Shown here piece after piece: positions 2,210 through 45,808 of a stretch of DNA of 64,000 bases. The stretch is from the NCBI GenBank assembly GCA_934754475.1, contig CAKVHV010000001.1:420228-484227 (forward strand), written 5' to 3'. The DNA comes from an uncultured Clostridia bacterium (GTDB lineage Bacteria > Bacillota > Clostridia > Christensenellales > UBA1242). A program made the position numbers and the translations under genes. Position 1 is the stretch's first letter, and the number at the start of each line of letters is the position of its first letter. The notes under the pieces were generated by a model that did no database searches, was not told where the DNA came from, and worked only from the letters and a program-made list of their open reading frames with translations.

Positions 2210-2220
2210 AGGAGAAAGAA

Positions 2221-4341: not shown

Positions 4342-4351
4342 AATTTAACTT

Positions 4352-4407
4352 ATTAGTTTTGTGAGTGTATACTTAATATTTGGACTTGGTAACACAAATA
4401 TTCTTAT
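4352..4407. repeat. Degenerate 56-bp copy of an internal segment of the permease gene (3865..3920)
   Basis: attagttttgtgagtgtatacttaatatttggacttggtaacacaaatattcttat aligns without gaps to attagttttgtgggtggatactttgtatttggacttgataatacaaatattcttat, about 50 of 56 identical by hand. It lies just after the permease stop. Confidence 0.6.
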
Positions 4408-4416
4408 TTAGATTAT

Positions 4417-4457
4417 AAAAAAACTGATAGACATATTAAATCTATCAGTTTTTTTAT
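4417..4457 (+). terminator. Rho-independent terminator of the ABC operon (A-run upstream, so potentially bidirectional)
   Basis: Perfect 11-bp stem aaactgataga/tctatcagttt (4421-4431 / 4441-4451), 9-nt loop, then a T-run. Confidence 0.75.
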
Positions 4458-4488
4458 TAAAAAATCATATTGTATTTAAAATAAATGC

Positions 4489-4523
4489 AAAAAACTAATG
4501 GAGTAAGAAACTTACTTCATTAG
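4489..4523 (-). terminator. Rho-independent terminator of the giant gene
   Basis: 13-bp stem ctaatggagtaag/cttacttcattag (one G-U) at 4495-4523, 8 nt downstream of the TAA. On the minus strand it is followed by a T-run (plus-strand A-run 4489-4494). Confidence 0.75.
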
Positions 4524-4531
4524 TTTTTTTG

Positions 4532-7500
4532 TTACATATTGGTAGCACTTTCGTGTAACCAATATTCATAAGGTTTGTTTAGAGTTATACTAATTTCAAC
4601 ATCACGTGTAATAGTATCCAAATTAAACGAACCAAAAGCATTAATGCTACAATTTTGTGTATTGATAGTATCAATTGTTGTGTATTGAGTGTAACTTGCT
4701 ATCAAGTAGTTTGCATTGAGTGTTGGGTTATGCGAAACGTTTTGATTCAAAGTTACATACGAATGTGCCGAAGAGTTCAAATAGAACATTGGATAGAATA
4801 CATAGATTTCATAAGTTCCATAACTATCAGTAGTCATGTCCCTACCGTCATTTTGACTTACAATATCATATTCACCGTTGTAGATATTTTCAAAGGTGTA
4901 AGATTGATTGTTTCTCAAATTAATTGAGTAAGCATGGTCAACTTCACCAGCACTATTTTTGTGAACTAATAGAACTGTCATATAGTCACTATCTTGAACA
5001 CCATCAGTTCCAACATCCGCCGTAAGCGTAGAGTTAATTGTTACATTAAATACTCTTTCGTTAAATGTGATAACCAAACCATAAGTAACTTTGTCAATAG
5101 TTTGAGAAATTATAATGTCAGCATTATCGAGAGTATCAGCATATTCTTGATAATTAGTTTGGTCTTCGGTTAGTGTTACTCCACCAACTTCAGTACCCGC
5201 TTTTTGCAATTCCCCAAATAATGTTGAAGTTATAAGTCCAGTAGATGTATTAGAAATTATGAAATTACCAACTTCGTCTGTGATAATAGAATAAGTAAAC
5301 TTAAGTTCGGTTGTATCACTAAATTCTGTTGAATTTTCAATATTTCCATAAATAGATTCTACTTTGTTATCAGAGTTTTTGAATAATATATCGTTATTAT
5401 CAAGATTCAAATTACCTAATTGATTTGTATCATCTGAATATTTGTGTGGATTATAGATAGTTACTTCAATATCTGTTGTGTCCCCACCATAAATTGCACG
5501 CAATACTGGATAATCCCAGTTGATGTGATTGATATAAATCCAAATATCATCAAAGTCCCAAGTACTATCATTTTTGAATGTCTTTTGATTACATAAGTTA
5601 CTACTTGAAATTTGAATAACATTTGAAGCCACTGTACCACTCATGCCAGAAGGTGTGCCTTGAATACCTTGTCCAATCTTAGGAGTGCTAGAACTATCTA
5701 CCAAGTAATAGTTTTTGGATACATTGTATCCCGAAGCACTACCATTAATTGCGCCTAGTACATAAGCATTTCCACTAGTCAAATTTAAGTCAAGTGCGAC
5801 GTAGTTATTAATAACATTTGCACCGCCATAAATTTCATTTACAAGACCAGAAATATTGTTATTTGCATAGTGGCTAATAATCTTGCCTTTGACATAGTTA
5901 TTTTGAACTGAACCATATAGATAATTTACATATCCACTATGCGAATTATCTGTATTGTAAATTTCAATTGTTCCATTGAAATATGATTCTTCCAAAACAG
6001 CATTGTCGTTGACACTAGATACCATACCACTAGCATAAACATTATTATTAAGAGCAGATATATTACCGCCAAGGTCGTTGCCAAATTCATAACTTTCATG
6101 CAATACTTGAGTTCCGTTTACATATCCAGTAACCGTACTTGCACTAATATTAGTTGTATCCTTAATAATTCCAACAAGACCCGAAATCAATGTATTTCTC
6201 TCGGTTATTTGTTTGTTGTTATAACCAAAGATGTTTCCGCTAATATAATTACAATTAGTTATCTTTGATGTTCCACTAACTAGTCCCGAAATAACTGCAC
6301 TAGAATTGAATGTCAATATGTCTACATTTTCAAAATCTAATCCACGAATAGTTGAATTTGAAATTGTATTTATAAATGCACTATAAATTAAATTTTCGTT
6401 CATGCTAGCATTATAAATTCCAGCATAAGAATTACTTTCAATTGTAAGTCCACTAATCTTGACGTTTTCAATATCAGCATCTTCTAATAAGTCAGAAGCA
6501 AGAATATCATCTTTGTTCTTTGCAATTCCAATTATATTAAATGAATTGTTGTATCCACTATTAATTGGAGTAAAGTATCTTCCACTCAAATCAATTGGTG
6601 TAGCACTTGCAATAACAAATGTTTTTCCTTGAATTTCGGCATTATTATATGTTGTTGCTCTTGATAGCCAGGCTAAATGTAAAGCATTTTCCAAAATATA
6701 ATAATCGCTAGTTCCAATAGTCTTTTTCAAACTACTTAGAGTAATACTTTCAACACCTGCTTTTTCAATCCACAAACCAAAGTCTGTGACAGTTGTTGAA
6801 GATGAATAATCGTTAATACCAAGTGTTGCATAACCTAGAGTCTTATCCGAAATAAATTCTGGATAATCAGCAGTAGAATAAGCATTTAGAACATTTCCAA
6901 CATTATTACAAATTACGTTAGTGCTTGTAGTGTTACTAATTGTACCTAGACTTACAACGTTGTAAACCAAAACATCTTTTGCATTAGTATCAATGTTAAA
7001 CGAAATGCCTTGAATTAACTTATCCTTGTCAGCAACAAAGTTAAGAGAATTTTTGATATAACTCAAAGAACCAAAGTTCTTAGTATTAATAATTTGTCCA
7101 TAGTTTGCTCCAGCAATTCCGCCAAACTGAGTAATTGACTGATTGTTAGAACTATTATCAATTGAATAGTTAAGTGTTGCATTGTTAATTGAATTGCTAA
7201 TAATTCCTTTGTTTACACCAGCAATTCCACCAAAAGCAACTGTGTATGCGCCCGATGCACTACTCAAACTAGGATTGTTTTCAATCAAATACAATGACGA
7301 ATTATCTGCATCACTTAGTATTTGAATGTTGTCAAGTTTTCCATTATTTTCAGCAATCAATGATACTGTAGATTTGTTTGAACCAAAATTATTGTTTTCG
7401 GATGCAATAATATTTACTCCAGCAAATTTAAGTCCAGTAATTAATCCCGAAGTTTCAAGAGTATTAATCAAGCCATACTTGGTTGTCCTTGTAGTTGAAT

Positions 7501-10500
7501 CAAACTCAGACATTCCATAAGTATACTCAGAATCTTGAGCCACTCCACTTGCATGACGAGTTGTAATTCCTAAGTTTCTATGTGAGTCAAGTACAATATT
7601 ATTAAATGTATATCCATTACCGAAGATATTTCCTGCAAATTTATTTAGTGTTGGAGTAAATCTACTTGCAAAATCAATATCGTTAGTAACCATGAAATAT
7701 TTATCTTTGTAATATTCATTTGAAGCATTAGAAGTATTAACTATATACCCCCAATCACTTGCCTTAGAAATTCTATAAGGATTTGTCTTAGTTCCGCCAC
7801 CTTGCAAAGTTGAAGTTGTTGGTTCATCATTCCAGTAATATCTTACATAGTTTACATGAATTTCAATGTTTCCAACTACGTTGTCAATCTTGAGTTCATA
7901 ACTATAGTTTGTATCACCAGTTGTTGCACCATTAGATTCGACATTATATGTGGTTTCCAATGTCTTAAGTGTTGTCTTGTTATCTGCTAATACTCCATTT
8001 ACATACTTTTGAACTACTGGCAAATAGTTGTCTGTGATGTTTTGAGTATTTGATTCCCAAGTTGAGTTGGATTGATTGTAGTAAATTCTAGTAGTTGTAC
8101 CATTGTTTTCTACATCCTTATAAACATAATATCTTATGCAACATTTGTCATAAACATATTTGTTATCTGGAAGTAGAGATATTGTGATATTTGTTCCATG
8201 TCTAACTTCACTAGTTATGTCAGTTCCAGTAAGTGTTGTTGTGCTTGACGAATTTGGAACTTCGCTTGGAGCAGATACAACACCATTTTCTGTATTATAT
8301 TCAAGTTCGCCACCCTTATCTACAATTGTATTGATATAGTGTTTGCTTGGAATATAATTAGCAACTATCATACTATCGCCATAGAAAGCATTAGTAAGAG
8401 CGTCTATTCTATAAGTATATAGTTCAAGTGATTCGCCACCAACAACAATTGTGTTAGTTACATTCGAAAGACTTACATCATTTGAACCAGACTTTGTAGT
8501 AAATCCAGTAAATGTATAGGTTTCTTTTGAATAAGTACTAAAGTTTATACTTGCATTATGGTCAACAAACATTTTGGTTATGAATGTTGTATTCATATAA
8601 TCTTTGTTTGTTAGATTGTCGGTGTCGTTGTAGTTATAATTTGTACTTTCCTTTTGATAAATACCAGCATCCAATAATCTTGTAGTTAGTACTCCATTAC
8701 TATAAGCATAGTAATTTAAATTATAACTTTGAGTTGAAATTGTATTGTTGTTATCCTTATCACCTAAGTTCTTTTGATTAATCTGATAAGCAGATTTGAC
8801 TTGTGAGTCTCCAGTTTCAAGTATTGCTTTTTCGACAGCAGAAACATTTTCATAACCATTTACATAAGCAATTGGATAATCAAATCCTATATCAGTATTA
8901 ACCTTAAACTTAACTTGTACAAGCCATTGTTTGATAAGAGATATTACATAATTACCACTAGTTTCAGCAGTTGCCACAAAGTCAATACTAATTTTTCCAC
9001 TAGATATATTGTATTCGCTAGTATTGGTTGAGCCATTTGTTTCAAACATAGTGTAATTTGCTTTGTTATATAGTTTGTCAAGTTCAAACTTATTATCGTT
9101 TGTTTCCAAACTATTAACAATTGTCTTATTGTCTAACAAATAGTTATAACCCGTATTATCAGTTAGAATATTATCAACTTCAAGCATCCAATAGTCTACT
9201 CTTATATTTGTATATTCATCTCTAATAATATCAGGATTTAGACTTAGTTCAATCTTAACTCTACTTCCATGTGGAATACTTTGTAGAGTTGGATTTGTAT
9301 TTGAAGCACTCTTATTATTTGTAGTATCAGATATAGTAATCTTGTCTATTAGTCTTCTTACACTTGTATCATCGGTTGTTTCAAGTGCTTCGGCTGAAAT
9401 ATCATAAGTATCTATATCTTCGGTGATATTAACAAAATAATCAAATCTATTTCTATCATACATATCAAGGACACTAGCAGATGGCAACATATCAAATCTT
9501 ACACCAAGTTTTTTGCCTGTATAATTTTTGGTTGTATTGCTACCCAAGTATTCGTCTTTGTCTTGAACATCGTCCGTTCTTGAATAAGTATTTGTTATAT
9601 TTTCGATTTGAGAACTTTCATGTCCCAAAGTAATAGTTGTTACATGTCTATAAATTATTGATGTAACTCTAAGTGTAACAGTTGCACCTTTGTAAATATA
9701 AATCGTTCCGTCTTCGTTTATTACTACTTCTCTAAGATTTATAATCATAGATTGCAAACCAGTTTCTTGAATGTTAGTTTCACTATTATCAATATCTACA
9801 ATATAGTTTTCGTGAATCATAACACGTGTGTTTTTATCTGGTCTTACATAAGTAAAGTATCTATCTAATAAATCGTCCGAATAGCCAATTGAATGATTTG
9901 CATCATGTGGAAGTTTGACGATGTAGTCATTAAATTGTTTGAATACAGGAAGACCACCATTTATATCGGTGTAAACACTCCAAACATTGACATAATCCCA
10001 TGTAGTGTCTGGGAATGTAGAAGATAATCTAATAATTTCATTAGAAGCCTTGCTTGATACACTTTCCAAAGTTGTAGTGCCAGTTGTAACCACTGCTTTG
10101 TCAGTTGAGTAAGCGGTGCTACCCAAGTTGTCTATAACACTAGATAGCCATACAGAATTGCCAAGAATAACATTTCCGCCAGCATAACTAATTACAAGTG
10201 GAGCAACTTTGATAGTTGGAGTAGCAACATTCGAAATAAGTTTGATTGAACCACTAATATAGATATTAGAAATAGTCAAACTTGCGTTAGTGCTAGAATT
10301 AATAACACCAGCAACACTTTGAGTTGAACTTCCGTCATCAGAAATCATAAGTGTGCCGACATTGTACATATCTTTCAAAACATTAATTGTTTCAGCACTT
10401 GCAATTACACCACCAATGTGTTTGTAACCTAGGATGTTTGCATAATTTCCAAGTGTTGTGCTTTTAGAACCCGTTGTACTCTTTCCAACAACACCCGAAA

Positions 10501-25500: not shown

Positions 25501-28500
25501 TTACATAAGGTATTAATCTGTAGAAATAATCATGTCTTGAGTTGTTGTATTGCAAGCCAGGGTTCTCGATATAAATACCTATAGACTTGGAAATCTGTTG
25601 AACTTTGCTTAGACTAATTGTAACATCACTAGTTACATTTGTACTAGACTTAGAGTTTGTGCTAGGAATACTAAATAGATTATCAAGACTAAACGATTGT
25701 CCTGAAAGTGTTAGAGTTCCGTTGTCTTGGGAATAAGTATATTTACCACCATAGTCTACATAGTACAAGTTGCTATTGTTGTGTAAAATTTTTGAACCAT
25801 TAGCAGTAACAGTTGTGCTATCGCTAAATGAATTTGCACCATTAGATGCATAAGATGTATTACGTGAAATACTAATTTGGTGAATTACTCTAGCACCCAA
25901 ATTACTAAATAATGCCGAATAATATGTGTTTGAGTATACGTTTGAATCATTAGTATCAACCGCAATCTTTTCCTGTTCAATTAAATATAGATAAATTGTA
26001 TAAGGATTAGTCTGAACGGCACCTGACGAGTATCCATCGTTTCCTTCCGAACTAGCAGTTGTATTTGAACCACTTGTGTTCCAATACATACGATATATAT
26101 GACTGCCAAAGTTAAATGCTGAATATCCAGAAGTATCGGTAGTATTCTTAGATAAAATACCCGAACCATATTTAGCTTGTACTTTAAGAGCGGTACCAAT
26201 TACAACTTGACTAAATTTGGTCGAATAAGTATAAAGATTACCACTAGTACTAGATAACGACAAATCATTGCTTGTCTTGGCGGATGTTTTATCATATATT
26301 TTGAAATTAGATAATTCGGTATCGCTAAATTGTGTACCCAATAACTTGACATAAATAGGCACATCTACAGCGGATAATTTTGGATTGACAACAATCGCAA
26401 CAACCGCAGTAGGACTCGCTCCCGCTTGAACCGCATGCCATAACAAGTTACCATCTGACGAATTGGTGTTTGTGACGGTTGTCGTACCATACTTAACAGT
26501 AGGTTTGGTATTATATCCAGTTGAAGCAATTGATAGAGTAACGTTATCATACTCGCTAGAATTAACATAAGTGCTACTACCCATAGTAACTTTGTTTATT
26601 CTATAAGTACTGCTTCCGTCTGTAATATTTATGGTGTACGAATAATGATTGTTTGTATCATAAAGCAAATATTTTGTAGTCGCTGTCGATTCAAGTTTAT
26701 CTCCAAAACTAATTGCGCTACTTCCACCAGTAATACTTCCCGTAAATCCACTAGGTGCAGGACTATCAATTTTCATACTAGTAGTGACGTAATAGTTATT
26801 AATACTAATAGCCAATGCCGATGTCGATGCCGATGTGAATGGGAATATTACAGTCTTGTTGGATGCAGTAAATGAATAAGACCCACTTGTTGCATTTTGG
26901 TAAGCACCACTTGTACTATTGAATGTTGTAAGTGTTGTACTACTTCCAAACTTAATTTGACCAAAATTAATAGCGCCATAATTTTTAGTAATATTAAAGC
27001 TAAGTGTATCATTTAAGAAACAATTGTATGTATTTCCGCTACTTTTATAGCAATAATACGAACTTGCTAGTGTATTTCCAAAAGCAGATATTGCAATCTG
27101 TTGGGATATGGTTACTGCAACAGTTGAGCAGTAAATATTTATTGCAAAACTATTAGAAGTTGGTTTAAGACTAATTGAAAAGGATTTATCTGTACTATCG
27201 TTATACGAACCAAACGAATAATTTGATGGCATAACTGAAGTATTTCCAAGTTTAACATCCGTAATAAATGCCCTAGCATTTTTTGCCACTGTAATTGTAT
27301 AAGACTCAGTCTCGCCCTGCAAAATTGATATATTATTGTTAATAGAAGCAATAAATGAGTCATTTACAGAACTAGACTCTTCATTAAACATCAATGCAGA
27401 AAATGTAGATAAATTTGCTACAAACACAATGTTTGAATTACTTGTTGAAGTAATTGGGGAATTATTTAGATAATAATTAATTGAACCAACGTTATAAAAG
27501 CTTTGAGTGTAATTAATAAGTGGATAACCACGATTGTATTGATAATCTATGTTGGTGTTCAATCCACTTTGAGTAATAAACCAACCATCTTCACCAAATG
27601 TAAAGCCATTGAAGTTAGATTTGTCTTTCATTTGAGATTCACTAGTTCTGCGAGTACCATAACTAGATGTACCCAAAGTTCCCGAGCCTATGTAATAATA
27701 AGCATTGCCAACCGAACCACTACCCGAAACTTTGACAGGGTACATTTTACCAACCCCATGGGATACAAAGTAAACATTTTTTATACTTCCCGAATTAGTA
27801 TTTGTAAGTCCAATATTTTTTCCACTAGTACCACTAGCCACAACAAAATATGAATTTTGAAGATTGCCTGAATTTGAATTAATCAAAAAGAAACTATCAT
27901 CTACGCCAGCATCAAGGCTTACAAACCTAACATATTTTCCACTATTATTTGTACCAACAAAACTAGCATAGCCACTTGTATTTCCGTCTAATCCACAATA
28001 TTCAATAGTTCCACTATTTGTTTGGCAAAGCATGGCTTTTCCACTAACACTACATGTACCACTTCCAACAAATAGATTAGATATTTTTCCATTATTTGTT
28101 TGAACTATTGCTGTACCAGAACTAGTAGATATCACCATATTACTTAAAGTATAATATTTCCCGTCAAGTGTTCCTGAACTCGACAACGAACTAAACCCTA
28201 CAAAGTCATAGTCCATTGTATAAGTATAAGTTGTGCCACCTATTGTCAATGAACTAGGGCTAAAGTCAATATCTGCACCAATTGTATAATTTGTTGTTGG
28301 GTTATTAACAAAGTATGCAAATTGAAGCGGTGTTGTAATATTAGTAGCACTTGAACTAGTTAAATTAGAATTTCTGCATTTTGCTACATCAGTCCAAGTT
28401 AACTTAATATATTTAATATTAATGCTAACAGTTGAACTAGCATTTCCCATTATTGTTTTAATACTATCCGCCAACATTGTGAAGTTGTTTGTTGTTGGTG

Positions 28501-31489
28501 CAGAGCCACGACCTGTAGCTGTCGTATTAATTAGTGTACCATTGCTTACTACATAATAATTCCCTGCACTATTACCATTTGTAATTGTAACTTGAGCATA
28601 ATATGTTTTGCTAGGGAAAGTTAAATTTAGTTTATTATATTCACGGGAACCTTTGACACTAACTGCGGTGGTGCTTGAACCCGAACCCCTTTGATTATTA
28701 GCACCATCTACAAAGGTCCATGAACCACTAGTCGAATCTCCCGAACTATCTATTTTAATACTAAAGTCATATGTATAGTCCAAATCCCAAGTTAATGTAA
28801 TAGTTCTCGGGGTTGTAAGACTTGACGTCACCTTGTTGGTAAGTTTCATGTTGGCTTGAGCAGTATTATGGTCATATTTTTTATTATCTATAATAGTCGA
28901 GCCATATTTAAGTACACCCGTCAAAGAGTCTCCTTCAGCATAATTTCCACCAATATAGAAATACGAAGAAGAACTACTCAAATCGCAGTATAAACTACTT
29001 ACACTACTAGAATAATTGCTACTATTGTAGTAGAATGTAAAGTTTCCGCCAGTAGAAGTAACTTTTGTCAAAACTTTACCTGGGTCACCGGAATAAGCCA
29101 TTATGATTTCCGGCATTGAACTAGTACTATCTGACTCACCAAAGTAACTTGAACTAGACAAAGTAAATGTCACAACTTTGTCTTTTGCAGTTCCGGAGTT
29201 TGAAATTGCAGTAACCGAACCTGTATTACTACCTTTCAGATAGTTGTTTTGATAGTACTTCAGATAATTGCAAGAATACGAGCCAATCGCTACAAAATAA
29301 TTACTACTAATTACTGCATTACTCCAAGTAATCTTAATAGTATCTGATGCCGAATATCCCGAGACTTTGTACACCCAGCCAATTCCCGCATTAACCGAGA
29401 CTTCCGAAGTAGTCGCACTCATAGGTGAACTCGAGCTATTCAAATAAACTAGTGGCGCATCCAAATTCATCGAATTATATGCATAACTATCCAATACGAC
29501 CATAAAGTAAGCATCGTTATTTGCCCAACTATATGTAATATATCTTCGTGTAGTCTCATTAGTAGATGTTCCGCTAGACGAGATTCTATTTGAACAATCT
29601 AGTTTTACTCCCGACGAACTTGTGCTAGATACACTATGTACAACAGTTCCCGTAGCACTGCCATATCTTAGTTCGGCAGTTAATTTCATATTTGCTTTGT
29701 AACCACTACTTACATCAAACCAAATTGTAGTTGTGCCAGTATCCCCCAAATAACAGAATAAATCGTTTGTAAGACTTGAACTTGTGCTAGAGTTGTAATA
29801 GTACTTAAACTTATTTGAACTAACCGCAGATGTTACACGGGTGAGTGTTCTTCCACCAGTACCAAATGTGTATACAGGCATAGTTTCCATATTTTCGACA
29901 TATCCATCAGTACGTGTAGCTGTTTCGTAACCTGACAAATGTAGAATTTCATCAGTACTAATTAGTGGCAAATCTTGTACATTTATTTGTATTAAATATC
30001 CATCTACAGCTGAACTTTCAAAATCCTTATACACTTCATAAGTCAAATCTTCACCAGCTGAGCTAGCACCACCACACGAAGCATATGTTGTAATTAGATA
30101 GTTACCAGGGAAATAAATATAATTCCAAGAACTATATTCTGAGTACGCACTCACTGAAAGATTAGTTAATGAACTGCCAGTACCATACATATTATGAGCG
30201 CTTGAAAAATTAACTGACAATGTGGCTGCTGATTCATTAGAATATTCTTGATTGACTTGATACAAATAACATGTACCTAAATTAAACTCGGCATAATTAT
30301 GCCCTTCATATTTAAATTGAAAAGTTTTGTATAAAGTTAGATAAGTACTATCCGAATACATAATCCAAGGTGTAATGCCTGTAGGACATATAATACCTAG
30401 CCAACGATAGTTATTTCCACTTGCCTTTTGACACAATCCAATACAGTGACCTTCTGAGTGATAAGCAGGAACAGGTACTTGACCGCAATACACACATGTT
30501 GCATATTCTGTTGAAGAGTTGTCATATGTAGTATTACAATGTGGGCAAGTATAACTTGAAGGGTCTGCATTAGGTGTATTAGCCTTGTAACTAACATGCA
30601 CATCTCTGGAAAAAACAACTGAAAAATTTATCATTGAGTGCCATTTTTCATAACTATTAATATTCCCTTCCCATTCATCAGAACCCAAAGGAAGAACAGT
30701 TTCTGAAATAGTTATTTTTCGAACATTTGCAAATATATTATCCCAAGACACACTCCATGAACCACCACCACTATTACTGTTATTTGAATAAGTAAAACCC
30801 GAACCTAAATTCGACGATGCTAAGCTCATAGGAGTTGATGCAATAAAAGTATCACTTGCATCATAAAAATAAACAAGAAGATCGTCATCACAATTATCTT
30901 CATTAGCCGTATTTAAATCGATACCTTCTTGAAGTGCAAAATCAATGCCTGTAATATTACTACTAGTCCAGCTTATATCCATAGCAAATTCTGCCCCAAT
31001 ACTAATAACATCAGGGTCTGAACTTCCATGTGGAGCATTCTCAAGATAATAAATTTCAAAGTTAAAGAGAGAAGAAGTACCAGAGCCATCAGCTGAATAT
31101 CCGCCTTGACTAATATCTGGATCTCCACCACCAAGTGATGCTAGAATTCCAATATCTGAACTACAGCCTTCAGTAGAAATTGTAACTGAATCATAACTTG
31201 ACGGCGGGTTTAAACATTGCCCAGTACAATGTACTCCGTGAAAGTCTGCTAAGCTATTGTAATACTCATGACAATATGAACATGTGCCACCAGGACCGCC
31301 AGTATCAAACGTCACACCGCAATCAGGACATGTCTCAGACCATGCCATAACATGATTTTGCGAGATTTCATTTATCATTACCGCAGAAAAAATTCCTGAG
31401 AACAGCATAACTATTCCCAAAAGGATAACTTTTATTAAATACGAATAAGGATGTTTTACTTTTAATTCTGAATTAACACTTTTTCGCAT
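4532..31489 (-). CDS. Giant (8,985-aa) N-terminally anchored S/T/N/Y/G-rich surface protein with GLUG-motif beta-helix modules; putative fibrillar adhesin, function unknown
   Basis: Single open frame of 26,958 nt. AGGAG sits 7 nt upstream of the ATG and a terminator follows the TAA. The N-terminus is a basic stretch plus one hydrophobic helix (LIKVILLGIVMLFSGIFSAVMI). Repeated GGLVG/GGIAG/GGVIA GLUG-like motifs. The longest alternative-frame ORFs inside it in the supplied track are 116 aa. Confidence 0.92.
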   Translation of the reverse strand: MRKSVNSELKVKHPYSYLIKVILLGIVMLFSGIFSAVMINEISQNHVMAWSETCPDCGVTFDTGGPGGTCSYCHEYYNSLADFHGVHCTGQCLNPPSSYDSVTISTEGCSSDIGILASLGGGDPDISQGGYSADGSGTSSLFNFEIYYLENAPHGSSDPDVISIGAEFAMDISWTSSNITGIDFALQEGIDLNTANEDNCDDDLLVYFYDASDTFIASTPMSLASSNLGSGFTYSNNSNSGGGSWSVSWDNIFANVRKITISETVLPLGSDEWEGNINSYEKWHSMINFSVVFSRDVHVSYKANTPNADPSSYTCPHCNTTYDNSSTEYATCVYCGQVPVPAYHSEGHCIGLCQKASGNNYRWLGIICPTGITPWIMYSDSTYLTLYKTFQFKYEGHNYAEFNLGTCYLYQVNQEYSNESAATLSVNFSSAHNMYGTGSSLTNLSVSAYSEYSSWNYIYFPGNYLITTYASCGGASSAGEDLTYEVYKDFESSAVDGYLIQINVQDLPLISTDEILHLSGYETATRTDGYVENMETMPVYTFGTGGRTLTRVTSAVSSNKFKYYYNSSTSSSLTNDLFCYLGDTGTTTIWFDVSSGYKANMKLTAELRYGSATGTVVHSVSSTSSSGVKLDCSNRISSSGTSTNETTRRYITYSWANNDAYFMVVLDSYAYNSMNLDAPLVYLNSSSSPMSATTSEVSVNAGIGWVYKVSGYSASDTIKITWSNAVISSNYFVAIGSYSCNYLKYYQNNYLKGSNTGSVTAISNSGTAKDKVVTFTLSSSSYFGESDSTSSMPEIIMAYSGDPGKVLTKVTSTGGNFTFYYNSSNYSSSVSSLYCDLSSSSSYFYIGGNYAEGDSLTGVLKYGSTIIDNKKYDHNTAQANMKLTNKVTSSLTTPRTITLTWDLDYTYDFSIKIDSSGDSTSGSWTFVDGANNQRGSGSSTTAVSVKGSREYNKLNLTFPSKTYYAQVTITNGNSAGNYYVVSNGTLINTTATGRGSAPTTNNFTMLADSIKTIMGNASSTVSINIKYIKLTWTDVAKCRNSNLTSSSATNITTPLQFAYFVNNPTTNYTIGADIDFSPSSLTIGGTTYTYTMDYDFVGFSSLSSSGTLDGKYYTLSNMVISTSSGTAIVQTNNGKISNLFVGSGTCSVSGKAMLCQTNSGTIEYCGLDGNTSGYASFVGTNNSGKYVRFVSLDAGVDDSFFLINSNSGNLQNSYFVVASGTSGKNIGLTNTNSGSIKNVYFVSHGVGKMYPVKVSGSGSVGNAYYYIGSGTLGTSSYGTRRTSESQMKDKSNFNGFTFGEDGWFITQSGLNTNIDYQYNRGYPLINYTQSFYNVGSINYYLNNSPITSTSNSNIVFVANLSTFSALMFNEESSSVNDSFIASINNNISILQGETESYTITVAKNARAFITDVKLGNTSVMPSNYSFGSYNDSTDKSFSISLKPTSNSFAINIYCSTVAVTISQQIAISAFGNTLASSYYCYKSSGNTYNCFLNDTLSFNITKNYGAINFGQIKFGSSTTLTTFNSTSGAYQNATSGSYSFTASNKTVIFPFTSASTSALAISINNYYVTTSMKIDSPAPSGFTGSITGGSSAISFGDKLESTATTKYLLYDTNNHYSYTINITDGSSTYRINKVTMGSSTYVNSSEYDNVTLSIASTGYNTKPTVKYGTTTVTNTNSSDGNLLWHAVQAGASPTAVVAIVVNPKLSAVDVPIYVKLLGTQFSDTELSNFKIYDKTSAKTSNDLSLSSTSGNLYTYSTKFSQVVIGTALKVQAKYGSGILSKNTTDTSGYSAFNFGSHIYRMYWNTSGSNTTASSEGNDGYSSGAVQTNPYTIYLYLIEQEKIAVDTNDSNVYSNTYYSALFSNLGARVIHQISISRNTSYASNGANSFSDSTTVTANGSKILHNNSNLYYVDYGGKYTYSQDNGTLTLSGQSFSLDNLFSIPSTNSKSSTNVTSDVTISLSKVQQISKSIGIYIENPGLQYNNSRHDYFYRLIPYVSFYTYTSTGRSPDPVHLTSSSENGTLVKLAKNNTSSIGANTINYSSNLLANVTLQASGSTTYGSTGKYTYVLTSVYGNYFEFTRGDKDSIATVADRNILISLESSDSGYPNVTNSSSQTQKDFFQNLNPSTITIDGKKDQKYTLKGYLKDGNSSIIFTYAPYVTLNFNSVDDAKSKQGESVDGIKSISISAKLNGSTFAAARTNGTKEITYDLASTSSGVNLIVTATMTIDDGFELSRLVFGSYRLFAAATNLKTTKAPYSEYISTNDADDVTNYKVTLTASGSTYLIDCKTLKIEIELNKSSYLDSDTITIVSAYTPYLVEKQTFGTYEDGTSVGKNTSVTIYGRGTIDIKDKYNNTYGNNSTLSLTNTSGTNYTLSISTLNIYYYTNLEVKFTNASNFYRQYAQVNGLTNGTYAQDPLTWYDTANTNLKGTYNTGTTFNISAQFVGITLHRTNRISPQMITRDASSNVGQGVNSFTISNGTETSYSGTTYTLTPASGYSLKYFKIYVYKTTGDTSTTQSTPYTLYTISSGSSNLKVPKQYTYTGNSLEQNFTATIARNSNNVTLALNYLVNSEKSNYYGSCSNILVEPVMCETAKTISASSGASPVALKWASNTISARYLKFSAGTMPSYTVYYDGTSTTSSSPTLNLGGNKNITRISINGAFNALYLSTDNSTWYTIYDSYVDGAVTASSTSPYVIDFVADYGLNLDNFKSYTNSGNQLIVPNVDGYFPIVSGKTYRVSSNMADYKVKLVTFNENLAQVDTNSDYQYIQTITASSSAKYMGLFFQRTSGSSNILNEFNANFSVNIQISTNNALSDTSAVELMVGYTGSQVKSTQVSGIRLITDSYSYVSKLNGSNHIQTHAVISNTTNTAYAQRYYTASTISGNKYNVYVTYYSANASMTKDQINTILGGITHDSSGNSNQNTPNASQYGAYRYFSSENSKTNANAYKFNFNTGVLNNTSMRGWEYKGMTILEGSATASTSDCSVVSVDANNTTLSGNFRNSSANTFKIFTIRINIAEKQFTHTVGHGCNNSSCTSCYAGTIDVYTTLSQNGASATTISGSNANSALIELKAAESARRFDTNASTGTATNISSQIPTSVSDIDASKRSTYNGMAMYADLPDIKYTKITVGYFTKLYLIAKSNDVNIYTNSWIVVDNSATSDKPNQSLYANYTYLNSGTITTTINFKPDFYSDWIEYAIKDGLNVDIPSTYSVNFRHKFDGSFQISLLGEVNRFNTDTNAFKEALVIEKSNQTSSDVTYQIKHGAKVIGTISANIDGKFSAGTYTLRVVAGAKVIITYSDNTTMPYAINMGQITAGSTTKTLNTAGSKLTAQAISNYDNCSIESSSTWVANAGGRVDPTTGGTITYTLDKKSTTTVNYCDNIEIKTVFDYYHQVFLDRVNVTNAAASKANGAISVTQIEKANNKQELTESSIGNYASIYLREGEYFKLSASDQINENTNTPFSKDKFYVFGLLKGTNSYVSGTDYTAQDSWYKNSGYSTYYTNVSTPITTAVSTNTPFTVNNVQITNANNENIYYTAFYSQAKPVQLEINTYDNGAVTKVATILTNSTKNTFDIGADNIYGQVSLFQDSACSKPLPLRSDGYMIVGCGTGTNRNFIDSFNIFVKYDTSGLVNYSFKDMTKHNDAHSGTSCSFVSLDTSNSDSFYINTTGIPFDTTYVNDKLQGSFKNHTIGQVNLNRLYEVTIKYRIRTSLNAYEDFDTKNKADLYLGYAGEYATDKFTTFGSSYQKKFISGQSITIDAYVPFENVDSYIAPFRIAKIATNGVSSVPSFTINNNGFNNATSTFTITSATAGTYYIDLVEMIRLDTGATNKSFISENGQNNFSGVTGGSIAFGNDTNPVTKVKDNGIYEVKDGIYIGIIAKDKSNASKVNETANFVDRFDQVRMTLSFDQGFEEYKPNSAGMKECFAGFTSENLVKQGYGNYTFIANESHINSTNGNPIVLYVTEKKTTYNVFYGICDLNGNVFTDDVRPDGNQFKLAALKNNQGLKTLVTNDNLSTDTKFTGKPLSEILAMEGNKNYIGYFGSVTFVTSVNQDSSYKFRTHNVNNYNPYEGITNIIYGYSHNGLEIGYNKTELMNGSGSFEGTLKLTNKTSEHPSVNSSTNQQDNKEIRVSAYFTYTNKVTIKFASTRNDAFNLTNGTFKSKFGVADGYTTSDNKVYFKTFVVPYNGTISGETFDAVVEPSFTSTSVDNYVPGYVYENISRLGSSTIKTTADQGGTTYSLTISNITASEEITLLYNPVVLVTLEKPNGVAGHNSVGKGTATTEFYSFKRNVEKNLVKIKPLYSQVVYPDGWTGGSNGTSSQSYSMVYNATNSISTGTINRDTSISNIFEINHESTGNTYVFVVYHGNGDNGLYYKTTLTPYIENTSAIETSERYIPHEVSYTNNTTQNTAHFQVKITDNNTEKYVDYENLSSGVYNNALIDKSLRESYYSSNTLTVSDNNIYQDKNSVTPSFAREYTIEFSTYLSNASDGTPASVILKIGTSTYTIPTTTTGGDIYYKNVHVLENEETTVQVLWDDDKFDNLYNQTQIYDSNVVTSNTQNIGYIAGQGNTTYYSVNNASQNQIKFEKTVYFSSSNVDATTGKEKVAQTSDKWIETLRFMEKRNVTLTVNPEYLDVSTQPIIEMGQKTIDPVGATTPTEKLTYGSFKSTSLTSGEYKGKNIYVSNNISSKPKTISATVQATKTDFTTLTLYAQDISATTSYDFKGFKIAGTSTYLVLASALATKNGMYEYSISVPSDSDGASYNIVADYTLNSDNVDKINIYGNGYFQFGYSTSTDALSASTNYTLFDQNKYANETNDIFRATNSLITNGAKYLVIKAYPQEHSTFASVSAKYTNASNMYFSKSGQNSATAEDDIYFSSENNVFVYSIRDWTPGSDVNYMQYNTEITLVFTSDTWRNPNYHTSISSTTITKNGISKVGYHVTTASQLAYIASTPSISQGSASENTIIYIDSDINMSAHLWLPMIDFRGQIISEKYKISGLRTTGQANIMLNSSLTIDGTNSTPSYINSYNDEFTYTSSGNTAYYNYNVDSSMSLLDTTNGATIEGLVIDDFVGTYYNSKNKFNGSIIGSSTNTTILDVEINNVTYTSVSSLALSSNYYFAKFIGTTNGYNVIRNSKSTGSFVCTITGENISASFVIGQSNCNSSDKPIVTDNGISTNEYLSNISITGTGNRVSGGTNLKLAGLISNYTSSSAYAHDIYFEVTGDKPATTNPISNSDLTTNTTFVYHSIFSKTFLATNTDTEFVSSNQTSNFAIRWSNPTTTTRKLKIDSTYSTFTNVDNHTGGTSANSPKIYAISSKNDLLGHLSNIDSSKSYVELRLTQDIDFGYSVWPTVDISSGYTFNGAGYKISNIVLNNYSRDTNSYAMFGTNAGVIKNLYVENIYMSVGVFATYKPSNYALIVSNNTGEILSTSVQGTIDANINNSDSNEVYIGGLIGTNSQALYELEFVGNISIGAFGKNTTSPKYVGGIVGYMNGGSLSKVHSSATINTYGNKTRVNNSSYFGGLVGKHTNISVNNSYYGNYANSEYVASINEFEKTSNSKAYALSGTGTGLEINYFYSSANFSLASANGVTSGTSSGNGIYMLNGTFSSVPTNITNGISDANLKNKTGLNGFDFDNVWYYQTTDEIHTYPYPMLIGNKNTHDVKVELSVEGIDFTDENITSVFELTNDYGYEQIIYGVKDEHTDTTSTKNAIDYYVQVLHSDSIDANKTSNRIKITPKTNYHIVSIVLDGVPFLNYNYRRNPTSSTSAISTDYLNLISSNSNYSGDQKTYARTNNHTLKIVLSKNFNFLGTGINGTKMSRDSITNTISNEYGTLTVSGTTSNGKTNMLKGNSGYYNHSVDNTNYSTWYLPEELHDYYYQNTSGLNSPNSANSLVTFTFEATPRVGDKNSYIATRLIGWVYETYASANSSDRNWDTIKNASLIKYKFNGDGTIGYEIVSNNDTLNYAKNITGFIDINSSTIQTSEIGMSNGKVSSKYITKATLSVTSDKVTDGYYYPVVEYIYTSSVVTALHYHNHLDSCYNSNGELICDDDVSHPFDYTNTCTTGGNTCLNSNNVTIQNVDTSSDITPGDILSEGSRVRIQIQNEKQGSLIGKFARRFYDTSTNSLQIYYYEIEEQYIKAIYKLNETRKSDGSISYEKVYFDSSYVDEANGIFDVSNSRLVTIDGSKEYQTRIEFTLTRSTTNVNSPVNTDGEYAFYMIEKLYDFTFNIFDADRMSETHLEISKESVFGNAISIKNDNGVLKYSFGSENNYVNIPSTMVSKLVSVMGRTLKVSVMLSGNNVIITSQMPDGHVAKLISTTLDSYRLTDQNDSIVARMTNKDVTNQIKYTSYQDVSHTETDKLGIRDKAYLSYNLAFNLVSGTSTKTYTYDYGTVTIIDEKVDLDIKFAKDYYSYFDQFGIDTNIPNYYTNNLSGSTTASAKFNNTTPIISSGQPTLSEILSSIQFATKDSNITSGEDGLTKNTAFTINSSYKLGWLAHMLNNNPDETYKVNGVSYKFKDAYYKISNNLDMSSKFWLPITQFDGVMFSLNDALDSGSINNIKIDIIASNVTGSFDTTNDINSNHVGLIAKSNNAKFIGLTLNNFDINTDLAVSIGNLVGLANSSYFDNINVRNSVICNIKNSNTSDSIAVGGLVGRANYMFAVNQTEITGVDFATNHNNVSAVVGASDYFGKIYNTYAFVNRITTYKSNTGITTSNPTIKFVNANNVVLKNNVHFVNSGVANSDLMFANGNILDNKEFNYLVGTKTVADATSVASANVNITTLNKLDSRVWANNSDNTDSRGTLKLISTAFDMSTTSTSLSTTEATNKGTIYNPYLIQNTQDFVLFVNNMNSNSNNTNAVYYKLTADIDLSGKYINPIILFKANLDGNNHKISGFYLYSDMGLTINGQTYFDSALILENQGKIENLFVVDFHIVNSNLYVSNNDTYGTSALVARNTNSGLVRNVSVVADIISTSEYTTGVVAINTSKVSTLISDGNILGLEYVSGVVGKSTTGSKSTTLGNYANILGYKHIGGVIASAETINVLKDMYNVGTLMISDDGSSTQSVAGVINSSTNASLTISNIYISGSIKLISNVATPTIKVAPLVISYAGGNVILGNSVWLSSVIDNLGSTAYSTDKAVVTTGTTTLESVSSKASNEIIRLSSTFPDTTWDYVNVWSVYTDINGGLPVFKQFNDYIVKLPHDANHSIGYSDDLLDRYFTYVRPDKNTRVMIHENYIVDIDNSETNIQETGLQSMIINLREVVINEDGTIYIYKGATVTLRVTSIIYRHVTTITLGHESSQIENITNTYSRTDDVQDKDEYLGSNTTKNYTGKKLGVRFDMLPSASVLDMYDRNRFDYFVNITEDIDTYDISAEALETTDDTSVRRLIDKITISDTTNNKSASNTNPTLQSIPHGSRVKIELSLNPDIIRDEYTNIRVDYWMLEVDNILTDNTGYNYLLDNKTIVNSLETNDNKFELDKLYNKANYTMFETNGSTNTSEYNISSGKISIDFVATAETSGNYVISLIKQWLVQVKFKVNTDIGFDYPIAYVNGYENVSAVEKAILETGDSQVKSAYQINQKNLGDKDNNNTISTQSYNLNYYAYSNGVLTTRLLDAGIYQKESTNYNYNDTDNLTNKDYMNTTFITKMFVDHNASINFSTYSKETYTFTGFTTKSGSNDVSLSNVTNTIVVGGESLELYTYRIDALTNAFYGDSMIVANYIPSKHYINTIVDKGGELEYNTENGVVSAPSEVPNSSSTTTLTGTDITSEVRHGTNITISLLPDNKYVYDKCCIRYYVYKDVENNGTTTRIYYNQSNSTWESNTQNITDNYLPVVQKYVNGVLADNKTTLKTLETTYNVESNGATTGDTNYSYELKIDNVVGNIEIHVNYVRYYWNDEPTTSTLQGGGTKTNPYRISKASDWGYIVNTSNASNEYYKDKYFMVTNDIDFASRFTPTLNKFAGNIFGNGYTFNNIVLDSHRNLGITTRHASGVAQDSEYTYGMSEFDSTTRTTKYGLINTLETSGLITGLKFAGVNIIASENNNFGSNKSTVSLIAENNGKLDNIQILSDADNSSLYLIENNPSLSSASGAYTVAFGGIAGVNKGIISNSINNATLNYSIDNSSNNQSITQFGGIAGANYGQIINTKNFGSLSYIKNSLNFVADKDKLIQGISFNIDTNAKDVLVYNVVSLGTISNTTSTNVICNNVGNVLNAYSTADYPEFISDKTLGYATLGINDYSSSTTVTDFGLWIEKAGVESITLSSLKKTIGTSDYYILENALHLAWLSRATTYNNAEIQGKTFVIASATPIDLSGRYFTPINSGYNNSFNIIGIAKNKDDILASDLLEDADIENVKISGLTIESNSYAGIYNASMNENLIYSAFINTISNSTIRGLDFENVDILTFNSSAVISGLVSGTSKITNCNYISGNIFGYNNKQITERNTLISGLVGIIKDTTNISASTVTGYVNGTQVLHESYEFGNDLGGNISALNNNVYASGMVSSVNDNAVLEESYFNGTIEIYNTDNSHSGYVNYLYGSVQNNYVKGKIISHYANNNISGLVNEIYGGANVINNYVALDLNLTSGNAYVLGAINGSASGYNVSKNYYLVDSSSTPKIGQGIQGTPSGMSGTVASNVIQISSSNLCNQKTFKNDSTWDFDDIWIYINHINWDYPVLRAIYGGDTTDIEVTIYNPHKYSDDTNQLGNLNLDNNDILFKNSDNKVESIYGNIENSTEFSDTTELKFTYSIITDEVGNFIISNTSTGLITSTLFGELQKAGTEVGGVTLTEDQTNYQEYADTLDNADIIISQTIDKVTYGLVITFNERVFNVTINSTLTADVGTDGVQDSDYMTVLLVHKNSAGEVDHAYSINLRNNQSYTFENIYNGEYDIVSQNDGRDMTTDSYGTYEIYVFYPMFYLNSSAHSYVTLNQNVSHNPTLNANYLIASYTQYTTIDTINTQNCSINAFGSFNLDTITRDVEISITLNKPYEYWLHESATNM
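5486..6715 (-). repeat. GLUG-type beta-helix module G of the giant protein (aa ~8259-8668)
   Basis: Opens GTSDYYILENALHLAWLS..IASATPIDLSGRYFTPI. Contains ISGLVGIIKDTTNISASTVTGYVNG. Closes DSTWDFDDIWIYINHINWDYPVLRAIYG. Confidence 0.65.
6740..7801 (-). repeat. GLUG-type beta-helix module F (aa ~7897-8250)
   Basis: Opens GGGTKTNPYRISKASDWGYIVN..FMVTNDIDFASRFTPTL. Contains FGGIAGVNKGIISNSINNATLNY and FGGIAGANYGQIINTKNFGSL. Confidence 0.65.
9932..11023 (-). repeat. GLUG-type beta-helix module E (aa ~6823-7186)
   Basis: Opens GTIYNPYLIQNTQDFVLFVNN..YKLTADIDLSGKYINPI. Contains YVSGVVGKSTTG and HIGGVIASAETI. Closes TTWDYVNVWSVYTDINGGLPVFKQF. Confidence 0.65.
11060..12070 (-). repeat. GLUG-type beta-helix module D (aa ~6474-6810)
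   Basis: Opens LTKNTAFTINSSYKLGWLAHML..YYKISNNLDMSSKFWLPITQFDG. Contains AVGGLVGRANYMFAVNQ. Closes LDSRVWANNSDNTDSRGTLKL. Confidence 0.6.
14534..15577 (-). repeat. GLUG-type beta-helix module C (aa ~5305-5652)
   Basis: Opens SPKIYAISSKNDLLGHL..RLTQDIDFGYSVWPTV. Contains YIGGLIGTNSQ, YVGGIVGYMNGGSLSKV and YFGGLVGKHTNISVNNSYYG. Closes GLNGFDFDNVWYYQTTDEIHTYPYPMLIG. Confidence 0.7.
15590..16690 (-). repeat. beta-helix module B (aa ~4934-5300), first member of the B-C pair
   Basis: Opens VGYHVTTASQLAYIASTPS..IIYIDSDINMSAHLWLPMIDFRGQI, the same cap pattern as the other modules. GLUG motifs are degenerate here (LAGLISNYTSS). Ends with FAIRWSNPTTTTRKLKI. Confidence 0.5.
27512..28342 (-). repeat. 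Solitary beta-helix module A (aa ~1050-1326)
   Basis: Opens NITTPLQFAYFVNNPTTNYTIGADIDF. Has short G-x-S/N rungs (NNGKISNLFVGSG, NSGTIEYCGLDG, NSGSIKNVYFVSHG). Closes SNFNGFTFGEDGWFI..YQYNRGYPLINY. Confidence 0.5.
30431..30553 (-). other. Cys6His2 knuckle motif, copy 2 (aa 313-353 of the giant protein)
   Basis: YTCPHCNTTYDNSSTEYATCVYCGQVPVPAYHSEGHCIGLC has the same Cys/His pattern as copy 1. Confidence 0.6.
31214..31339 (-). other. Cys6His2 knuckle motif, copy 1 (aa 51-92), immediately after the N-terminal membrane helix
   Basis: SETCPDCGVTFDTGGPGGTCSYCHEYYNSLADFHGVHCTGQC: CxxC-x12-CxxC-x14-CxxxC with conserved His residues. Confidence 0.6.
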
Positions 31490-31519
31490 GGTTTTCTCCT
31501 AAAATTATTATTTGTAAAA

Positions 31520-31547
31520 AATATAATTTGTTGCATATTATTTTCAA
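31520..31547 (-). promoter_or_regulatory. Candidate sigma-A-type promoter of the giant gene
   Basis: Minus strand reads TTGAAA, 16 nt, TATATT, about 30 nt upstream of the AGGAG/ATG. The AT-rich context makes chance matches likely. Confidence 0.3.
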
Positions 31548-32525: not shown

Positions 32526-32543
32526 TTAACATATATATGTTAA
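32526..32543. promoter_or_regulatory. Perfect 18-bp palindrome upstream of rnhA (operator-like)
   Basis: ttaacatatatatgttaa is fully self-complementary and lies 22 bp upstream of the rnhA ATG. Confidence 0.35.
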
Positions 32544-32596
32544 CAAAAAACAATTTTGTTGGCAAGAAAATTTTTGGCGAAAATTTGGATTATTGC

Positions 32597-32626
32597 TTGA
32601 CAATAATGTTTAAATTGTTATACAAT
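32597..32626 (+). promoter_or_regulatory. Sigma-A-type promoter of tRNA-Trp
   Basis: TTGACA (32597-32602), 18 nt, TACAAT (32621-32626). The tRNA starts at 32645. Confidence 0.55.
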
Positions 32627-32644
32627 AGCATTGTTATTTTATTT

Positions 32645-32719
32645 AGGGGTGTGGCTCAATGGTAGAGTAGCGGTCTCCAAAACCGTAGGTTGTGGGTTCG
32701 AGTCCTACCACCCCTGCCA
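32645..32719 (+). tRNA. tRNA-Trp (anticodon CCA), CCA end encoded
   Basis: AGGGGTG acceptor pairs with CACCCCT. Anticodon loop CTCCAAA. T-arm GTGGG-TTCGAGT-CCTAC. Terminal GCCA. Confidence 0.92.
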
Positions 32720-45805: not shown

Positions 45806-45808
45806 GCA

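Follow-up and report, generated by a model that had tools for sequence, protein, structure and literature searches.

A syntenic 27-kb gene of an uncultured gut Clostridia lineage encodes a non-repetitive, largely orphan giant protein with seven putative beta-helix modules remotely related to GLUG proteins

What does a single bacterial gene of 27 kb encode, and how could its product be exported, held and used by the cell? These questions are raised by a 64,000-nt stretch of DNA (hereafter the window) from an uncultured Clostridia bacterium (Christensenellales, UBA1242; assembly GCA_934754475.1, contig CAKVHV010000001.1, positions 420,228 to 484,227 of the forward strand), in which one minus-strand open reading frame (ORF) of 8,985 codons occupies positions 4532 to 31489. 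An initial annotation, made from the letters of the window alone, proposed that this ORF encodes an N-terminally anchored giant surface protein. Here we report that the gene is intact and resident at the same locus in closely related species, and that its product carries a single hydrophobic helix, seven dispersed modules homologous to GLUG proteins and a remainder with hardly any detectable relative. We favour, with moderate confidence, an adhesin-like surface filament of great length that would be exported through Sec, bind a ligand by its GLUG-type beta-helices and have its C-terminal third as the working end.

The gene is one ATG-started frame closed by one terminal TAA, as initially described, and the probability that 8,985 codons remain open by chance is about 1e-313, given a stop probability of 0.077 per codon at the local composition (~33% GC). 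The longest open run in the other five frames over the same region is 122 codons by our recount, instead of the 116 first reported. Independent copies, located through exact-sequence look-up of the neighbouring RNase H and ABC permease genes, include an 8,985-aa call on ENA ERZ28613653 (a 167-kb contig) and another on a Logan ERR7746349 contig, each with 100% identity in the overlap that was fetched, as well as an 8,933-aa call on ENA ERZ15610045 (a 384-kb contig; 98.8% nucleotide identity), the 52-aa difference in length between strains mapping upstream of amino acid (aa) 5718. In the partial copies of SRR31242824, SRR22974104 and ULTU01093111.1, the frame is open up to the contig ends. Tandem Repeats Finder (TRF) detected 0 arrays in the gene, which consequently offers no repeat source of collapse, expansion or mis-assembly.

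Since the window comes from a metagenome assembly, an assembly artefact or a decaying pseudogene open by chance had to be considered, all the more as a related gut metagenome contig (L005, ERR2597512...k127_793736) carries, in place of the window's Ser codon, an in-frame TGA at its positions 6530-6532, which lie 20 nt short of the end of the contig. Homology resumes beyond this TGA, and locus L006, whose N-terminus is nearly identical to that of L005, is open at the same position; the TGA probably reflects either an error at the end of the assembly or a nonsense mutation at the strain level. Against an artefact or a pseudogene stand the agreement of full-length calls among independent assemblies of different samples, the negligible chance of such an open frame, the lack of DNA repeats able to cause collapse or expansion, and ratios of nonsynonymous to synonymous substitution rates (dN/dS) well below 1, down to 0.05. 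This explanation is effectively refuted, and the initial proposal of a true gene encoding a ~1-MDa protein is borne out by the several assemblies, the dN/dS values and a computed mass of 982.8 kDa.

The predicted protein is acidic (net charge -204) and contains just 55 Cys. Its composition is dominated by S (12.4%), T (11.4%), N (10.5%), I (7.4%), G (7.1%) and Y (7.1%), in agreement with the S/T/N/Y/G bias pointed out initially. Two small Cys clusters stand out from Cys-poor sequence, HGCNNSSCTSC at aa 3028-3036 (~22382-22408) and C-x8-C-x13-C-x6-C near HYHNHLDSC at aa 6035-6065 (~13295-13387), and may represent metal-binding sites or disulphide knots.

Seven modules of 286-418 aa each (M1 to M7; Table 1) amount to 2,483 aa, or 28% of the protein, with pairwise identities of 16-24%. 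They have in common a head, ..NPY.I.t..dL...DIDls..w.PIg..F.G.fdGnGy.I.nL, and turns of the form G-G-[LIV]-[VA]-G, while the tail WDF..vW...YP.L is present in several of them. A module of this kind also occurs once in every orthologue fragment, at 550-1,330 aa from the start of the fragment. A profile built from the seven window modules alone (A1) was searched in 5.8e9 proteins and retrieved seven, with E-values of 3e-9 to 3e-4; three of these score above the Pfam GLUG (PF07581) cutoff (P0004 with 4 motifs, 5e-41) and two just below it, and Peptidase_M26_N and the "pectate-lyase-like adhesive domain" also match weakly among the retrieved proteins. Once expanded with these seven proteins, the profile retrieved 384, nearly all of them with PF07581, in which Peptidase_M26_N, SLH, Listeria-Bacteroides repeats, Big_2, dockerin and type IX secretion system (T9SS) tails are frequent partners; such partner domains are typical surface-protein contexts. 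The window-only hidden Markov model gives end-to-end alignments to modules of 88 out of 130 proteins retrieved. The GLUG motifs of the initial annotation are thus supported at the profile level, as a remote relation, but Pfam itself gives a single sub-threshold match, seen in tiles only.

A partial structure model may point to the same family. Supplied with a 23-row alignment, AlphaFold2 predicted an all-beta coil for the N-terminal ~227 residues of M3, at predicted local distance difference test (pLDDT) values of 85-97; an earlier run, with the seven internal modules as alignment, reached a mean pLDDT of 46 and, through a weak fold search, the same fold class. Foldseek ranked 6xjb and 7uvk first for the partial M3 model of 227 residues (probability 1.00, E ~6e-3), followed by pectate lyases. 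Used as a profile against the PDB (A3), the 23-row alignment matched 3n6z at 4e-30, 6xjb/6xja at 1e-20 over residues 112-430, which correspond to the N-terminal domain (NTD), and the Gemella haemolysans IgA1 protease 7uvk/7uvl at 4e-16; the window-only module profile had no match in the PDB. We interpret the modules as putative, remote right-handed beta-helices of the GLUG/IgA1 protease NTD type. The beta-helix of the pneumococcal IgA1 protease NTD touches the IgA1 Fab and gates the active site, a role in binding and not in catalysis (PMC7695701). Neither Peptidase_M26 nor any other peptidase family was found in the Pfam and NCBIfam tiles, and the giant protein is not classed as an IgA1 protease because it lacks a protease domain.

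The fold class of the modules is also common to pectate and alginate lyases, which are among the weak Foldseek matches, and other giant proteins have been connected with the breakdown of carbohydrates (bioRxiv 10.1101/2023.11.21.568195). Both observations would suit a giant extracellular enzyme, be it a polysaccharide lyase or hydrolase or a protease, that degrades host or dietary polymers. However, no catalytic family or motif was detected anywhere in the protein, a motif search found no HExxH in the 8,985 aa, and it is the substrate-binding, non-catalytic NTD of IgA1 proteases, not the active-site regions of lyases, that gives the best matches in structure and sequence, which makes an enzyme very unlikely. 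The absence of catalytic signatures asserted initially consequently holds for HExxH and for catalytic families; as for the P-loop, one G-x4-GK[ST] string does occur at aa 5834 and was dismissed as an isolated regular-expression match.

How such a chain would leave the cell is suggested by its N-terminus. The sole transmembrane-grade segment of the protein lies at aa 21-39 (Kyte-Doolittle 2.67; runner-up anywhere 1.56) and is preceded by a basic tail of charge +4, so that an N-in/C-out orientation is predicted by the positive-inside rule. This helix is contained in a conserved motif, K.NF.VKHPY.YLI.SI.LG..ML..G.FS, of which 10 positions are invariant across 7 orthologue N-termini whose bodies go down to ~26% identity. 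The aa 1-48 region is the most conserved part of the giant-protein family, and within 1.44 Mb of related loci the motif occurs solely at giant N-termini. All orthologues keep the basic tail and the hydrophobic helix of about 20 residues, as expected of the N-terminal export signal of fibrillar adhesins. Read by eye, a V/A-x-A-type site recurs 8-20 residues past the hydrophobic stretch in the window protein and six orthologues (VMA, VKA, VDA, ASA, VEA, TDA, VSA); V-M-A at aa 46-48 is a possible signal-peptidase site, and the helix may equally be a permanent signal anchor or a long cleaved signal peptide. What stands of the initial "N-terminally anchored" is therefore the single helix in a strongly conserved motif, whereas anchoring is one of two equally possible fates. 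No signal-peptide family, including YSIRK (PF04650 / TIGR01168), matched the seven N-termini in Pfam at E<=10 or in the NCBIfam tiles. A YSIRK-G/S signal was considered and rejected, Y-L-I-[KR]-S-I-L-L-G being just loosely similar to Y-S-I-R-K-x3-G.

The C-terminus (...KPYEYWLHESATNM) has neither a sortase-type motif, since LPXTG, NPXTG and SPXTG were all absent from the 8,985 aa in a motif search, nor a hydrophobic tail, as the initial annotation had stated and as hydropathy and the Pfam and NCBIfam tiles agree. None of the surface-anchor families SLH, CWB2, LysM, SH3b and choline-binding was found in these tiles, and there is no second hydrophobic helix. The protein could accordingly be imagined as a secreted matrix component, with its signal cut at V-x-A and a mature chain of ~978 kDa released into a matrix, sheath or aggregate. 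The recurrence of V/A-x-A sites and the lack of any other retention motif in motif, Pfam and NCBIfam searches are compatible with such a release; yet 10 invariant positions within and around a ~20-residue hydrophobic stretch go far beyond ordinary h-region conservation and fit a lasting role, and we regard release into a matrix as rather unlikely.

Past the helix, the first thousand residues contain the only other duplications of the protein, namely a pair of paralogous Cys-rich units and two diverged copies of a further unit (Table 1). The stretch between the Cys-rich units (aa 63-332) is missing from the sister-species orthologue, and a Pfam hint to the double zinc ribbon family at aa 310-338 is at chance level (E 0.39).

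About 66% of the protein (aa ~1450-4900, 5720-6450, 7250-7890 and 8673-8985) is non-repetitive and orphan. A BLASTP self-comparison gave no match at E<1e-3, and iterated profiles identified no repeats other than the seven modules, the Cys-rich pair and the one N-terminal duplication. The term "fibrillar adhesin", used initially, consequently does not apply in its strict sense: TRF, BLASTP and the profiles, which found the modules and two small N-terminal duplications, concur that a stalk of tandem-repeat domains is absent.

Family searches had to be adapted to the size of the protein. Pfam and NCBIfam scans of its two 4,500-aa halves returned nothing, and the bias and Forward filters of HMMER were found to reject even the self-match of a 150-aa tile when the target is the whole, biased 8,985-aa sequence. 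Pfam and NCBIfam scans were repeated on 998-aa tiles, and our own iterated searches were run on tiled targets with filters off. This tiled domain scan, recommended in the initial annotation, assigned no family beyond the sub-threshold GLUG: Pfam yielded otherwise chance-level hints only, and NCBIfam and PHROGs nothing. Against all PDB sequences, phmmer with both halves found nothing at E<=1, and orthologue-based profiles of aa 800-980 (A6) and aa 1740-1990 found nothing at E<=10. An exhaustive phmmer search of aa 3301-4500 against 1.84 billion representatives retrieved 4 proteins, none with a Pfam domain: two close-orthologue fragments (87% and 95%) and two marginal matches (37% over 140 aa; 29% at E 2.5e-5). 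The search with aa 1-1200 retrieved one relative, the syntenic orthologue fragment P0001. Our literature search found no paper on the giant protein of this lineage. It is conceivable that the ~6,000 orphan residues hold many different unseen domains with new folds, possibly enzymatic or receptor-like, that the HPY.YL helix is a new sorting or anchoring signal, and that the whole would form a genus-specific, multifunctional surface "organelle" serving, for instance, obligate cell-cell or host attachment; we judge this combination unlikely.

Selection differs markedly along the chain. The analysis covers the N-terminal ~3,100 aa and the C-terminal ~3,270 aa. The N-terminal part has a dN/dS of 0.41 against a same-species strain (L001; dS 0.22) and of 0.46 against the sister species (L006; dS 0.42). 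The C-terminal part ranges from 0.03 to 0.22 per 400-aa block against a conspecific strain (L087; dS ~0.04), and against the locus L090 dN/dS falls to 0.08 for the last 965 aa (dS 0.34) and to 0.05 for the tip (dS 0.38; 96% aa identity). Overall, the C-terminal third evolves at a dN/dS of 0.05-0.13 at two divergence levels, and the N-terminal third 4-5 times faster. The tightly constrained third comprises the tip and six modules out of seven; plasticity is seen in the membrane-proximal third, which is either tolerant of change or under diversifying pressure. In the latter, aa 601-800 are identical to those of the same conspecific strain from which aa ~1401-1800 differ to the point of saturation (Table 1); identical and saturated blocks side by side indicate intragenic recombination or segment replacement in the N-terminal part of the gene.

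Taken together, these data are best accommodated by a surface filament. The conserved basic tail and hydrophobic helix would direct export through Sec, after which the helix would either stay in the membrane as a signal anchor or be removed at the V-x-A site. Outside the cell, the chain would form a very long filament, probably mostly beta-structured, in which the seven GLUG-type right-handed beta-helix modules may act as ligand-binding units and the ~6,000 lineage-specific, non-repetitive residues as a spacer or stalk, possibly with further unrecognised functions. The constrained C-terminal third, with its six modules and tip, would be the likely binding end, and the protein would likely serve in attachment to a gut macromolecule of host, dietary or microbial origin. 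Surface proteins of this mass exist elsewhere, Ebh of Staphylococcus aureus being ~1.1 MDa. The export of a 1-MDa chain, initially presented as a puzzle, is not one in itself, as giants of 3,000-8,000 aa with Sec signals have been described in Apilactobacillus (PMC12863079).

Several observations weigh against the surface filament. The sole Pfam GLUG match scores 20.1 bits, under the gathering score of 20.5 bits, and appears only in the 998-aa tiles; no Foldseek E-value reaches 1e-3; and the link from the window to known structures is transitive because A3 is dominated by external GLUG sequences. The CxxC...CxxC zinc-ribbon-like units just past the helix are more typical of cytoplasmic proteins, and the protein has no wall- or membrane-retention module besides the N-terminal helix, which is possibly cleaved itself. 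AlphaFold2 gave pLDDT values below 50 for the dark aa 5656-6471, modelled with no alignment support. Two thirds of the protein are without structural or functional assignment and may have other activities, and the selection data come from the parts before aa 3,150 and after aa 5,700.

The genomic surroundings are those of a resident gene. The flanks encode a DedA/VTT protein, an ABC transporter, RNase H, tRNA-Trp, RNase Y, ThiI, a NifS-like aminotransferase, YunB and SpoVAD, and further a sigma factor, Cmk, a DacB-like PBP5, DnaG, PPDK and Era; the GC content of the giant gene resembles theirs. Relatives were ranked by an RNase Y scan of GTDB species representatives. The closest is the metagenome-assembled genome (MAG) "Clostridiales bacterium UBA11490" (RNase Y 99% aa identity), which we consider a sister species because its flanks are just 86-88% identical in DNA; the next are MAGs of uncultured Clostridia from the guts of humans, rabbits, goats and deer, and more distant relatives are MAGs labelled Christensenella or Christensenellaceae. 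Of the eight loci from the closest species (RNase Y >=86%), seven have a giant frame that directly follows RNase Y/RNase H and is open to the end of the fetched DNA, being longer than 2,800 aa in L006, L008-L010, L012 and L013 and contig-limited to 1,252 aa in L007; the contig of the eighth locus, L011, ends before the slot could be read. No giant ORF was found in that slot among the examined loci with RNase Y <=79%. Consequently, the giant gene is a syntenic, genus-level resident, and the initial view that it is not recent cargo is upheld. A peptide-pattern search of GTDB representatives with the giant's N-terminus found no relative, the method needing near-identical octapeptides (the sister species does have an orthologue), and a JGI metagenome scan with the N-terminal motif had no match. 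An origin as a prophage or phage tail fibre or tailspike was discarded, as no tile matched PHROGs and the neighbours are housekeeping genes.

The presence of the sporulation genes SpoVAD and YunB nearby, together with the huge, acidic and beta-rich character that the protein shares with many surface-layer proteins, brings to mind a structural protein of the envelope or spore surface (an S-layer-like coat, a spore appendage or an exosporium fibre) instead of an adhesin. These sporulation genes are nevertheless separate transcription units several kb off, and no SLH, CWB2 or other S-layer or spore-coat family was found in the Pfam and NCBIfam tiles, the only hint being a chance-level match to CsxC (E 0.08; 13 bits against a cutoff of 135 bits). 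Moreover, S-layers are not known to be built from monomers of ~1 MDa. An envelope or spore-surface role thus appears quite unlikely, and a surface filament with adhesive modules remains our preferred reading of the gene.

The expression signals mentioned in the initial annotation, an AGGAG before the ATG and a hairpin with a T-run after the TAA, are both present (Table 1). The 560-nt intergenic region has 10 sigma-70-like sites, against 3.6 expected. The hairpin, which a consensus terminator scan overlooks because the scan demands at least 3 G-C pairs, is probably bidirectional and would serve both the giant gene and the convergent ABC permease gene.

Table 1. Coordinates of the giant gene, its expression signals and the regions of its product. 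Nucleotide positions are those of the window.
Feature	Position in protein (aa)	Window coordinates	Strand	Remarks
Complete coding sequence		4532..31489	-	8,985 codons + TAA; 982.8 kDa, isoelectric point (pI) ~5.0; same call in independent assemblies
Ribosome-binding site AGGAG		31496..31500	-	Ends 6 nt 5' of ATG; upstream sequence ...TTTTAGGAGAAAACC, then ATG
Candidate sigma-70-like promoter TTGAAA, 16 nt, TATATT		31520..31547	-	Consensus match only
Intrinsic terminator-like hairpin		4489..4529	-	18-bp AT-rich stem, -16.8 kcal/mol, A-run + T-run either side
N-terminal export/anchor region	1-48	31346..31489	-	Basic tail, conserved motif, hydrophobic helix, V-M-A aa 46-48
Cys-rich unit 1	50-94	31208..31342	-	CxxC-x12-CxxC-x14-C-x3-C, zinc-ribbon-like
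Cys-rich unit 2	311-355	30425..30559	-	Paralogue of unit 1
Internal duplication	~450-700 and ~780-975	28565..30142	-	Diverged copies of one unit
M1	1045-1330	27500..28357	-	Putative GLUG-type beta-helix module; equivalent in all orthologue fragments
Hypervariable mosaic patch	~1401-1800	26090..27289	-	~42% identity to same-species strain, dS saturated
Main dark region	~1450-4900	16790..27142	-	Non-repetitive; no family, structure or distant homologue detected
M2	4935-5299	15593..16687	-	Module alignment, iterated profile
M3	5300-5655	14525..15592	-	Best-preserved module; ends in tail FDFDNVW...YPYPML
Sub-threshold Pfam GLUG (PF07581) motif	~5479-5503	14981..15055	-	E 7.7e-4; 20.1 bits vs 20.5 cutoff
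M4	6472-6805	11075..12076	-	Module alignment, iterated profile
M5	6822-7188	9926..11026	-	Module alignment, iterated profile
M6	7898-8254	6728..7798	-	dN/dS 0.07 vs L090
M7	8255-8672	5474..6727	-	dN/dS 0.11 vs L090
C-terminal tip	8673-8985	4535..5473	-	No anchor motif; most strongly constrained part measured

Other features of the locus were recorded in passing. Between RNase Y and RNase H, a ~296-bp segment with tRNA-Trp (within window 32531-32950) is inverted in the window and L001 relative to L005, L006 and L008; the tRNA gene (32645-32719, plus strand) is antisense to its neighbours in the window and co-directional with them in the other three loci. This segment is ~96% identical across loci, against 86-92% for the flanks, and is bracketed by an imperfect 23-nt inverted repeat (32531-32553 / 32928-32950; 78%). 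The RNase H gene (window 32052-32504) likewise appears inverted relative to RNase Y in L007-L010 and not in L012, L013 and L006, from which it follows that species differ by repeated rearrangements of the short stretch upstream of the giant gene.

Farther away lies an 881-aa ORF (window 41159-43804, plus strand) without Pfam family. Its N-terminus, with the lipobox LIGC, is like that of a lipoprotein; Asn makes up 21.7% of its residues, long tracts rich in N, D and T are of low complexity, and a Cys-rich patch occupies aa ~140-200. A similar-sized open frame, matched by size and strand alone, lies on the same strand in related loci; kinship of the 881-aa ORF to the giant protein was rejected on comparison. 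A cluster of six tRNA genes (Tyr, Thr, Phe, Asp, Met, Pro) occupies window 45721-46307 on the minus strand, its Met and Pro genes being also found in L008. Beyond the window start, positions 1-8068 of L086/L087 (window base 1 being L086 7781) encode a tyrosine integrase, a LexA/S24-like repressor, a protein with a CD-NTase C-terminal domain (as in CBASS-type defence), a YgjP-like protein and a 638-aa PadR-domain protein, and may represent an integrated or defence islet adjoining MutL/MiaA.

If our reading is correct, an uncultured gut Clostridia lineage spends a 27-kb gene on one surface protein, which is probably more than 1% of its genome if the genomes of more distant relatives, of 1.5-1.65 Mb, are taken as a guide. 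A conserved binding end opposed to a diverging other end would make this protein a candidate determinant of the attachment of these little-known, Christensenella-like gut bacteria to host mucus, food particles or partner microbes. The protein is also a clean case of a giant that is not built as a repeat array, and its ~6,000 orphan residues are a dense source of possibly new folds. On the practical side, standard HMMER runs on very long, biased proteins can lose even self-matches, and such proteins should be tiled (or searched with --max) before annotation.

The modules of the giant protein are linked by profile to GLUG proteins and, transitively, to solved structures of the NTD of M26 IgA1 proteases and its relatives (S. 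pneumoniae IgA1P/ZmpA, 6xja/6xjb; G. haemolysans, 7uvk; Bacteroides ovatus BACOVA_03286, 3n6z; PF07581, PF05342). Unlike M26 IgA1 proteases, the window protein has no protease domain, HExxH, G5 domain or LPXTG, and it carries seven modules along a 9,000-aa chain, diverged almost past Pfam detection, where these enzymes have one each. Its closest described analogues appear to be Giant1-5 of Apilactobacillus kunkeei, a small-genome Firmicute: these extracellular, Asn-rich proteins of 3,000-8,000 aa combine a Sec signal at the N-terminus with a beta-solenoid domain for binding, are of narrow taxonomic range and diversify by short intragenic recombination (PMC12863079). The likeness would extend to giant size, Asn-richness, an N-terminal export signal, beta-helical binding modules and a recombination mosaic. 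In contrast, Giant1-5 are encoded by a cluster of five genes, consist largely of imperfect internal repeats (13-51 copies) and have C-terminal DUF5776/SH3b-like wall-binding domains (PMC12863079), whereas the window protein is non-repetitive, is encoded by a single gene, has GLUG instead of SRRP-like modules and gave no DUF5776 match.

Proteins of 10,000-30,000 aa have already been reported from mammalian-gut Clostridia by West-Roberts et al., and very large Clostridia proteins composed of Listeria-Bacteroides or RCC1 repeats are documented there as well (bioRxiv 10.1101/2023.11.21.568195). With these and with fibrillar adhesins, the window protein would have in common a very large size, export, beta-richness, binding modules and an inferred role in attachment, but their tandem arrays (FIVAR-GA, Listeria-Bacteroides repeats, RCC1, Big, dockerin) have no detectable counterpart in it. 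Consequently, neither the size nor the presumed role is new, giant proteins of Clostridia and Apilactobacillus being already on record. What distinguishes the giant protein of this lineage is its non-repetitive and largely orphan build, its seven dispersed and diverged GLUG modules, an invariant N-terminal motif as sole candidate retention device, and the polarity of constraint along its chain.

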